Source: Escherichia phage Ptacy1532. Taken from it: a DNA stretch of 64,000 nucleotides. Below the pieces are notes generated by a model. The model did not search any database. It worked only from the letters and a program-made list of their open reading frames with translations, and had not been told where the DNA came from. Position numbers and translations under genes: made by a program. The DNA is taken from the sequence record PQ863255.1, one strand, 5' to 3'. Positions 30,970 to 31,993 of the stretch are shown here, in pieces; position 1 is the stretch's first letter; each line of letters starts with the position of its first letter.

Positions 30970-31352
30970 TCTCCAATGATTTCCATATCCGCTTTATCTC
31001 CTTTCTTAGTAAGGAGGATTGCTGGTTTATTCTTACTCTTCATATACTCAAACATGTGCATAGAGCCTCTTGACTCTCCATCCCAGAAGACTATCACTGC
31101 ATCTGCATACTCCCCCATGTCTACATTTCGAAGTATCCCAGCCTTTTTGCCGAGAGTGTTCCATGAAGGAATGAAACGTTTGATAGGTATGTCATTATGT
31201 TTAGCAACAGTCTCTCCGTGAAGATCTGGCCCTCTTGCACCACCTGACACTACTTCTGAAATCAGTTTAGGGATTTCCTCTGGAAGCAAAGCCCACATCT
31301 GAGTAAAAGAATGCCAGTCTATCGACCGGCTTCCTGCGATTATCACTTTCAT
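30960..31352 (-). CDS. SLOG/DUF2493-like nucleotide-binding domain protein
   Basis: 130 aa; N-terminal [10 protein letters not shown] Rossmann-like motif and GGARG..D pattern seen in LOG/DprA-like SLOG domains. Confidence 0.4.
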
Positions 31353-31993
31353 GTAATCAATCCTTGAAACTCTTCTTTATTGAAATGCTTCTCTACCACA
31401 TACTCATACAGATCTTTTAACTCCGCATAACGACGGTAGAAAGTTCCGTGTGACATTCCAATAGTCTTCTGAATGTGGTCATGTGGGATTCCCAAGAAGA
31501 TCATTGAGAACATATTGGCTAACTTCTGAGTATCCATCGTATCACTTAAATCTTGGAAGAAATAGAAGATACGAGACTCCATGAATGGGTCACCAACAGA
31601 ATCTTGCTTATCCATAGCAATCTCTAAAGGACTATCCACCATATCTGGAGTACGGAACATATCAGCCTCTGGAATAGAGTAGATACGACGGTCCCCCACA
31701 GTCTGCCTATTTGAACGTATAGACCAGATAATATTCTTGACTCGATAAGTCATATGCTCTTGGTCTTTCTCATCCTCTAGGACTCTCTCATCCTGCTTAG
31801 CGAAGACAAATCTCCAAGCATTCAAGAGCACTTCCTGTGCCACATCTTCTGCTTCATGATAATCCCTGATATCATACATGAAGAACTTGTGAACCACTTT
31901 CCAGTTCACTTTATAAAACTCTTCATAGTTTGAGATATATTTAATAGGGATTCCATGAATGCGATATCTTGTAGGTGTTGTCTTCTTCGCCAT
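31349..31993 (-). CDS. ECF-like sigma factor (putative)
   Basis: 214 aa; [15 protein letters not shown] resembles sigma region 2; C-terminal [29 protein letters not shown] resembles region 4 HTH. Confidence 0.55.

Follow-up and report, generated by a model that had tools for sequence, protein, structure and literature searches.

A phiEco32 gp36-type sigma factor, its promoters and a possible seventh site in Escherichia phage Ptacy1532

Phage replacement sigma factors that switch the host RNA polymerase (RNAP) to later gene classes are known from T4 (gp55, with gp33/gp45) and from SPO1 (gp28 and gp33/34). Compared with these proteins, gp36 of phage phiEco32 is unrelated or far more distant in sequence, uses other promoters and has other co-activators. 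In phiEco32 the early genes depend on sigma-70, while the middle and late genes depend on the gp36 holoenzyme. Bound to the E. coli core RNAP, gp36 steers it to middle and late promoters whose consensus is tAATGTAtA (PMC8948821, PMC12276001). Six promoters of gp36 have been mapped, which precede genes 6, 13, 26, 40, 58 and 68. The tAATGTAtA element is common to all of them, with the published variants TAATGTAgA at P6 and aAATGTATA at P68 (Table S3 of PMC8948821), and transcription starts 6-8 bp downstream of it (PMC8948821).

The complex of E. coli RNAP, gp36, gp79 and the middle promoter P68 has been solved by cryo-EM (PDB 9M7Y; PMC12276001), and the description in this paragraph follows that work. 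Gp36 folds into a sigma-2-like N-terminal domain (residues 1-103), a sigma-3.2-like linker and a sigma-4-like C-terminal domain (residues 138-214), with deviations from the usual fold. The first helix of the N-terminal domain (alpha-1) is turned by some 70 degrees, and D44, E47, E49, D50 and E54 bind the clamp helices of beta'. This domain reads AATGTA at -14 to -9: the bases -14A, -13A and -12T are read as duplex by N95, S91 and S94, W90 and Y83 stack at the fork junction, and -11G is read by E79 and H80. The linker threads the active-centre cleft of RNAP along the path of sigma region 3.2. A compact C-terminal domain, whose alpha-4 is short, binds the rotated beta flap-tip helix and gp79; through R187 and Y186 it contacts -37G and -34A in the major groove. 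Gp79 is a middle-gene product which displaces region 4 of the host sigma-70 from RNAP. Together with gp36 it re-folds, clamps onto the C-terminal domain of gp36 and raises transcription 3-4 fold. In vitro, P26 and P68 are transcribed by RNAP-gp36 alone, an activity that is lost on mutation of contact residues or promoter positions (PMC12276001).

More distant relatives of gp36 are encoded by the syntenic sigma genes of Salmonella phage 7-11 (SaPh711_gp47) and of Grimontviridae/Lahexavirus phages (Privateer, A24, SeKF_80, LAh_8). They have in common with gp36 the gene order gene 40-like, sigma, small ORF, exonuclease. Their overall identity to gp36 is 15-27% (22-27% for Privateer, A24, SeKF_80 and LAh_8), with the first 60 residues clearly homologous (E 2e-10). 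Phage 7-11 uses a bipartite GTAAtg-(16)-aCTA promoter and has neither gp79 nor a middle class (PMC8948821).

How does the locus in Ptacy1532 compare with these systems? The window analysed here is the whole stretch of 64,000 nucleotides from Escherichia phage Ptacy1532 (PQ863255.1), and its features are collected in Table 1. The product of the sigma ORF is identical end to end to chain F of 9M7Y, i.e. phiEco32 gp36, at 213 of 214 positions (E 4.3e-145); this chain, titled 'RNA polymerase ECF sigma factor' and 214 aa long, is the one PDB match to the product. PHROG 1740 'RNA polymerase sigma factor' is also matched (E 5.5e-45). Because of this near-identity to a solved chain and the PHROG match, the ORF is not a chance one. 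The contact residues named in PMC12276001, for the clamp helices, the -10 region, the -35 region, the flap-tip helix and gp79, are all kept in the window protein (24/24), and the DNA-contact residues E79, H80, Y83, R84, W90, S91, S94 and N95 were checked in its N-terminal domain. With a probability of about 0.97, the ORF is the Kuravirus sigma factor, an ortholog of phiEco32 gp36 (phi32_36) and a two-domain, very diverged (ECF-like) member of the sigma-70 family. The two phages are alike in the contact residues, in gp79, in six syntenic promoters and in their genus, Kuravirus.

Table 1. Positions of the sigma gene, its partner, its promoters and neighbouring elements in the window.
Feature	Coordinates	Strand	Details
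Sigma factor gene, phiEco32 gp36 ortholog	31349..31993	-	ATG-to-stop ORF, 214 aa plus stop
N-terminal domain, residues 1-103, sigma-2-like	31685..31993	-	limits from PMC12276001; sub-threshold Sigma70_r2 match at residues 31-62
Linker, residues 104-137, sigma region 3.2-like	31583..31684	-	PMC12276001
C-terminal domain, residues 138-214, sigma-4-like	31352..31582	-	PMC12276001
Terminator-like hairpin and T-run	32507..32524	-	separates the P40 operon (gene 40, HNH gene) from the spanin-sigma genes
P6 equivalent, late, TAATGTAgA	1078..1086	+	predicted +1 near 1093; gene start 1098
P13 equivalent, late, TAATGTATA	8593..8601	+	predicted +1 near 8608; gene start 8635
P26 equivalent, late, TAATGTATA	23979..23987	+	predicted +1 near 23994; gene start 24026
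P40 equivalent, middle, TAATGTATA	33776..33784	-	predicted +1 near 33769; gene 40 homolog start 33716
P58 equivalent, middle, TAATGTATA	40191..40199	-	predicted +1 near 40184; gene start 40154
P68 equivalent, middle, aAATGTATA	45699..45707	-	cryo-EM template promoter; predicted +1 near 45692; gene start 45658
Seventh gp36-type promoter (predicted)	33825..33856	+	TGGTAGTAGATA at -38..-27, TAATGTATA at -15..-7; predicted +1 near 33863
Candidate gp36-dependent non-coding RNA	33863..34020	+	5' hairpin 33864-33879, central domain, long 3' hairpin 33953-34018
gp79 ortholog, 82 aa	51638..51886	-	100% identical to PDB 9M7Y chain G

The sequence-only reading had proposed a sigma factor of 214 residues at this place, with two motifs joined by an unusual linker. 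The ORF and both motifs are borne out, and the minus strand, which that reading did not give, is added. Its region-2-like segment (residues 48-62) turns out to be the helix with D44/E47/E49/D50/E54 that docks on the clamp helices, its region-4-like helix-turn-helix (residues 178-193) holds Y186/R187, which enter the major groove at -37/-34, and its 'non-canonical linker' is the segment that runs through the active-centre cleft in the manner of sigma region 3.2 (PMC12276001). No family model matched within linker residues 104-137. The proposed redirection of the host core RNAP to middle and late promoters is supported by the literature on the 213/214-identical protein. A gp36-type sigma factor is already known, down to its cryo-EM structure; the result is thus a correct re-identification of the textbook redirection of host RNAP by a phage sigma factor, with no new biology. 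It is of use for annotation: the RefSeq record of the closest genome, NC_070991, names the sigma gene 'hypothetical protein' and carries the note 'identical to RNA polymerase ECF sigma factor [Escherichia virus phiEco32]'.

Are the cognate promoters present as well? The exact 9-mer TAATGTATA occurs five times in the window where 0.61 copies are expected, and 0 of 100 shuffles reached five; the copies are found on both strands and are intergenic every time. Copies with one mismatch number 20, no more than chance would give (18.3 expected); beside the exact copies, therefore, just the syntenic pair P6 and P68 is meaningful. All six published promoters lie at syntenic sites, with 5-53 nt from the predicted +1 to the expected gene. 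The three on the plus strand precede late genes and the three on the minus strand precede middle genes. The claim that promoters of this type stand upstream of genes on both strands is therefore correct. The published gp36/gp79 mechanism presumably operates in Ptacy1532 too: the gp36 holoenzyme would serve the late genes rightward from P6, P13 and P26 and the middle genes leftward from P40, P58 and P68.

When these six sites and a seventh one, described below, were aligned on the predicted +1, T(-38), R(-37), R(-36) and A(-34) were present in 7/7. The -38 to -34 element is a weak -35-like one which fits the R187/Y186 contacts in the cryo-EM structure, and its conservation refines the older description of a 'single-element' promoter. 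Examples are seen at 45726-45730 (-) and 33825-33829 (+). At P68 the upstream TGGTAGTAGATA (45719-45730, -) holds both -37G and -34A. The late promoters P13 and P26 additionally have AAGACCTA in common at -37 to -30. At the P6 equivalent (1078-1100, +) the predicted start lies about 5 nt before the ATG at 1098, downstream of AGGAG, so transcripts of the first gene would be nearly leaderless. A further one-mismatch copy, CAATGTATA at 18748-18756 (+), keeps the core AATGTATA and lies within a tail-fibre coding region; it could be a chance match or an internal late promoter. As for the co-activator, the gp79 ortholog gives phmmer whole-sequence E values as low as 1.4e-8 with TAL-effector repeat proteins such as 3UGM. 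No single stretch passed, and the match is probably summed weak helical-repeat similarity rather than homology.

To which sigma family does the protein belong? Taken alone, the product fails every curated sigma cut-off. Pfam Sigma70_r2 (PF04542) gives 18.3 bits (E 0.002) over residues 31-62 only, the cut-off being 24. NCBIfam TIGR02937 (sigma70-ECF) gives 23.3 bits against a cut-off of 42.9, with residues 23-192 aligned to profile positions 3-157 of 165 (E 4.1e-5). Sigma70_r4 and Sigma70_r4_2 give no match even at E up to 10. Profile searches with Sigma70_r2 and Sigma70_r4_2 had been named beforehand as the check on the sigma assignment; region 2 gave a sub-threshold match and region 4 none. 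The assignment escaped refutation there only narrowly, and it is the solved structure that settles it. An AlphaFold2 single-sequence model of the product (mean pLDDT 42.8) was too poor for a fold search.

A profile of gp36 and four syntenic homologs (Privateer, A24, SeKF_80, LAh_8), dominated by these four more canonical members, reaches solved ECF sigma factors over nearly their full length: SigW at 7.2e-8, SigL at 7.3e-7, RpoE at 3.8e-6 and a SigH-type protein at 4.5e-6. Sigma70_r2 is matched by all five members, gp36 included, at E up to 0.01. Sigma70_r4_2 is matched by three of the five, that is, by three of the four distant homologs and not by gp36. The distant relatives pass or approach both Pfam models, whereas gp36 does not. 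On the basis of the sub-threshold scores, the syntenic relatives and the five-member profile, gp36 is placed with the ECF-type two-domain sigma factors as a much diverged side branch, which functions as a sigma factor but lies outside the curated ECF definitions, and the earlier term 'ECF-like' is fair in this sense. The curated sigma models miss the gp36-type protein, so a structure or near-identity is needed for naming it.

Promoters of the ECF type are bipartite, with AAC at -35 and a CGT-like -10. Could the protein be an ordinary canonical ECF (group 4) sigma factor, with anti-sigma control and an AAC(-35)/CGT(-10)-type promoter? Many GenBank records do carry the name 'RNA polymerase ECF sigma factor', the weak matches go to ECF subfamily models, and the profile search reaches solved ECF sigma factors. 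The two-domain architecture fits too (PMC12276001): the bacterial ECF sigma factors (B. subtilis SigW, 5WUQ; M. tuberculosis SigL, 6DV9; RpoE, 2Q1Z/1OR7) have, like gp36, sigma-2 and sigma-4 domains and a linker in the cleft. However, gp36 is below all the curated cut-offs, with no region-4 Pfam match, and its promoter grammar is different. The promoters in the window do not fit the bipartite ECF type: they have one strong element, AATGTA at -14 to -9, partly read as duplex, and at -38 to -34 only the weak T-R-R-N-A. The rotated alpha-1 and the compact C-terminal domain with its short alpha-4, sitting on a rotated flap-tip helix, also speak against a canonical member (PMC12276001). No anti-sigma factor is reported for gp36, and its known partner, the phage co-activator gp79, is an activator rather than an anti-sigma (PMC12276001). 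We regard the canonical ECF reading as unlikely and retain that of a diverged offshoot.

The only difference between the window protein and phiEco32 gp36 is D205N in the C-terminal domain (D in the structure, N here). The 4-kb region around the sigma gene is 99.7% identical to Escherichia phage vB_EcoP_WFI101126 (NC_070991; Kuravirus, Gordonclarkvirinae) and 94-97% identical to many phiEco32-like phages. A tblastn search gave sigma homologs from 100 phage records; in 98 of these the match is near full length, with 79-99.5% identity. N205 (codon 31379-31381, -) is found in none of these 100 records, the best of which reaches 99.5% identity, and it adjoins F204, a flap-tip-helix contact. Is the gene then a decaying or functionally altered copy? 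The uniqueness of N205 and its position next to F204 would agree with this, but the frame is intact, all contact residues, gp79 and the six cognate promoters are retained, asparagine for aspartate is a conservative exchange and the listed contacts do not include residue 205, which makes loss or change of function very improbable. Least credible of all is an HTH regulator or RNAP-binding appropriator that merely resembles sigma and leaves the promoters to host sigma-70: the sigma similarity is indeed sub-threshold and mostly within residues 21-70, but the cryo-EM open complex has gp36 at the sigma-2, sigma-3.2 and sigma-4 positions with no host sigma, the in vitro activity of RNAP-gp36 and its loss on mutation agree with that (PMC12276001), and for a protein 213/214 identical to gp36 the published structure and biochemistry already refute the idea.

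There is a further question, how the sigma gene itself is expressed. P40 points towards it from about 1.8 kb upstream, and between the two is a terminator-like hairpin (Table 1) which is an annotated terminator in NC_070991. Read-through from P40 past a leaky terminator would amount to positive autoregulation, and because the sigma gene is downstream of P40 it probably reinforces its own synthesis in this way. A sigma-70 promoter of its own is at best putative. The best match, ATGAGA-17-TATAAT at 32253-32225, overlaps the start codon region of the o-spanin ORF; it is the only one nearby, and sigma-70 promoter-like matches near the sigma gene are no commoner than in shuffles. The middle-gene cluster has, directly before the sigma gene, an i-spanin ORF with an embedded o-spanin-like ORF (31993-32512, -), the latter with a lipobox-like ...LVMSMSAC. 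The sigma ATG overlaps the stop of the o-spanin-like ORF (TAATG), and the sigma gene is translationally coupled to it.

The gene content around the sigma gene differs slightly between Ptacy1532 and phiEco32. In phiEco32 the macro-domain gene phi32_37 stands between gene 38 and the sigma gene and is absent in Ptacy1532, while Ptacy1532 has an HNH endonuclease gene inserted downstream of gene 40. This HNH homing-endonuclease gene (32547-32960, -) lies between the gene-40 homolog and the terminator and spanin genes. In most relatives the alignment covers no more than 86-89% of the 4-kb query and is broken into 2-3 pieces, which suggests that the HNH gene is a mobile insertion common to Ptacy1532 and WFI101126.

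Are there only six promoters for this sigma factor? A seventh gp36-type promoter is predicted outside the sigma-gene coordinates, with the layout TGGTAGTAGATA (33825-33836)-N11-TAATGTATA (33848-33856). It stands back-to-back with P40, divergent from it and 64 bp away. Its TGGTAGTAGATA is the same as the -38 to -27 region of P68 at the same spacing, and these are the only two places in the window with the 12-mer. Across 11 Gordonclarkvirinae genomes, among them phiEco32 and members of Suseptimavirus and Nieuwekanaalvirus, neither element varies. Among metagenome contigs, five of six keep the promoter at the same spacing despite a different spacer sequence, and one has G-11A; pattern scans of IMG/VR and metagenomes added only a handful of further, closely related contigs. 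The site is not among the six promoters of the published lists (PMC8948821), and the primary mapping papers may mention it. The seventh promoter may thus be new.

What would be transcribed from this site? No ATG or credible ORF follows it. A protein-coding reading of the stretch was rejected, the only frames being TTG-initiated ones of 21-32 aa with zero ATG. The intergenic region is 315 nt long and contains a near-invariant block at 33925-34020. Folding of the plus strand beats shuffles (-45.8 kcal/mol, z -2.66); the minus strand gives -35.3 kcal/mol with z -1.48. In the 5' hairpin just after the predicted +1, compensatory changes are seen from U-A to G-C, from C-G to U-A and from C-G to A-U, along with G-C to G-U changes that are workable on the plus strand only. 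Covariation support is confined to this hairpin; the other predicted pairs are invariant, so those helices are neither supported nor contradicted. In some phages the central module is replaced by an unrelated one, and the flanks and the closing helix persist.

We tentatively propose, at somewhat less than even odds, that in Kuravirus and Suseptimavirus an unlisted seventh gp36-dependent promoter drives no protein gene; its product would be a non-coding transcript, conserved and structured and some 155 nt long (33863 to about 34020), that runs against the direction of the middle genes. Such a transcript could be a sigma-dependent regulatory or antisense RNA, or a replication-origin primer. Alternatively, the seventh site is an origin-priming promoter or a promoter-like relic. 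GC skew near 33.8 kb is uninformative as an origin test, for it follows gene orientation and switches near 28.5-29 kb. The intergenic region is absent in the distant relatives (Privateer, A24, SeKF_80, LAh_8). An Rfam search of the stretch gave nothing below E 2, and an unspecific literature search on Kuravirus non-coding RNA returned nothing relevant. If the proposal is true, a non-coding output would be added to one of the best-defined phage sigma regulons, which matters modestly, and an RNA with an origin-priming or antisense role would have a candidate that can be put to a direct test. The long 3' hairpin (33953-34018), read on the minus strand, precedes TTTTTAT and could just as well terminate the upstream middle operon.
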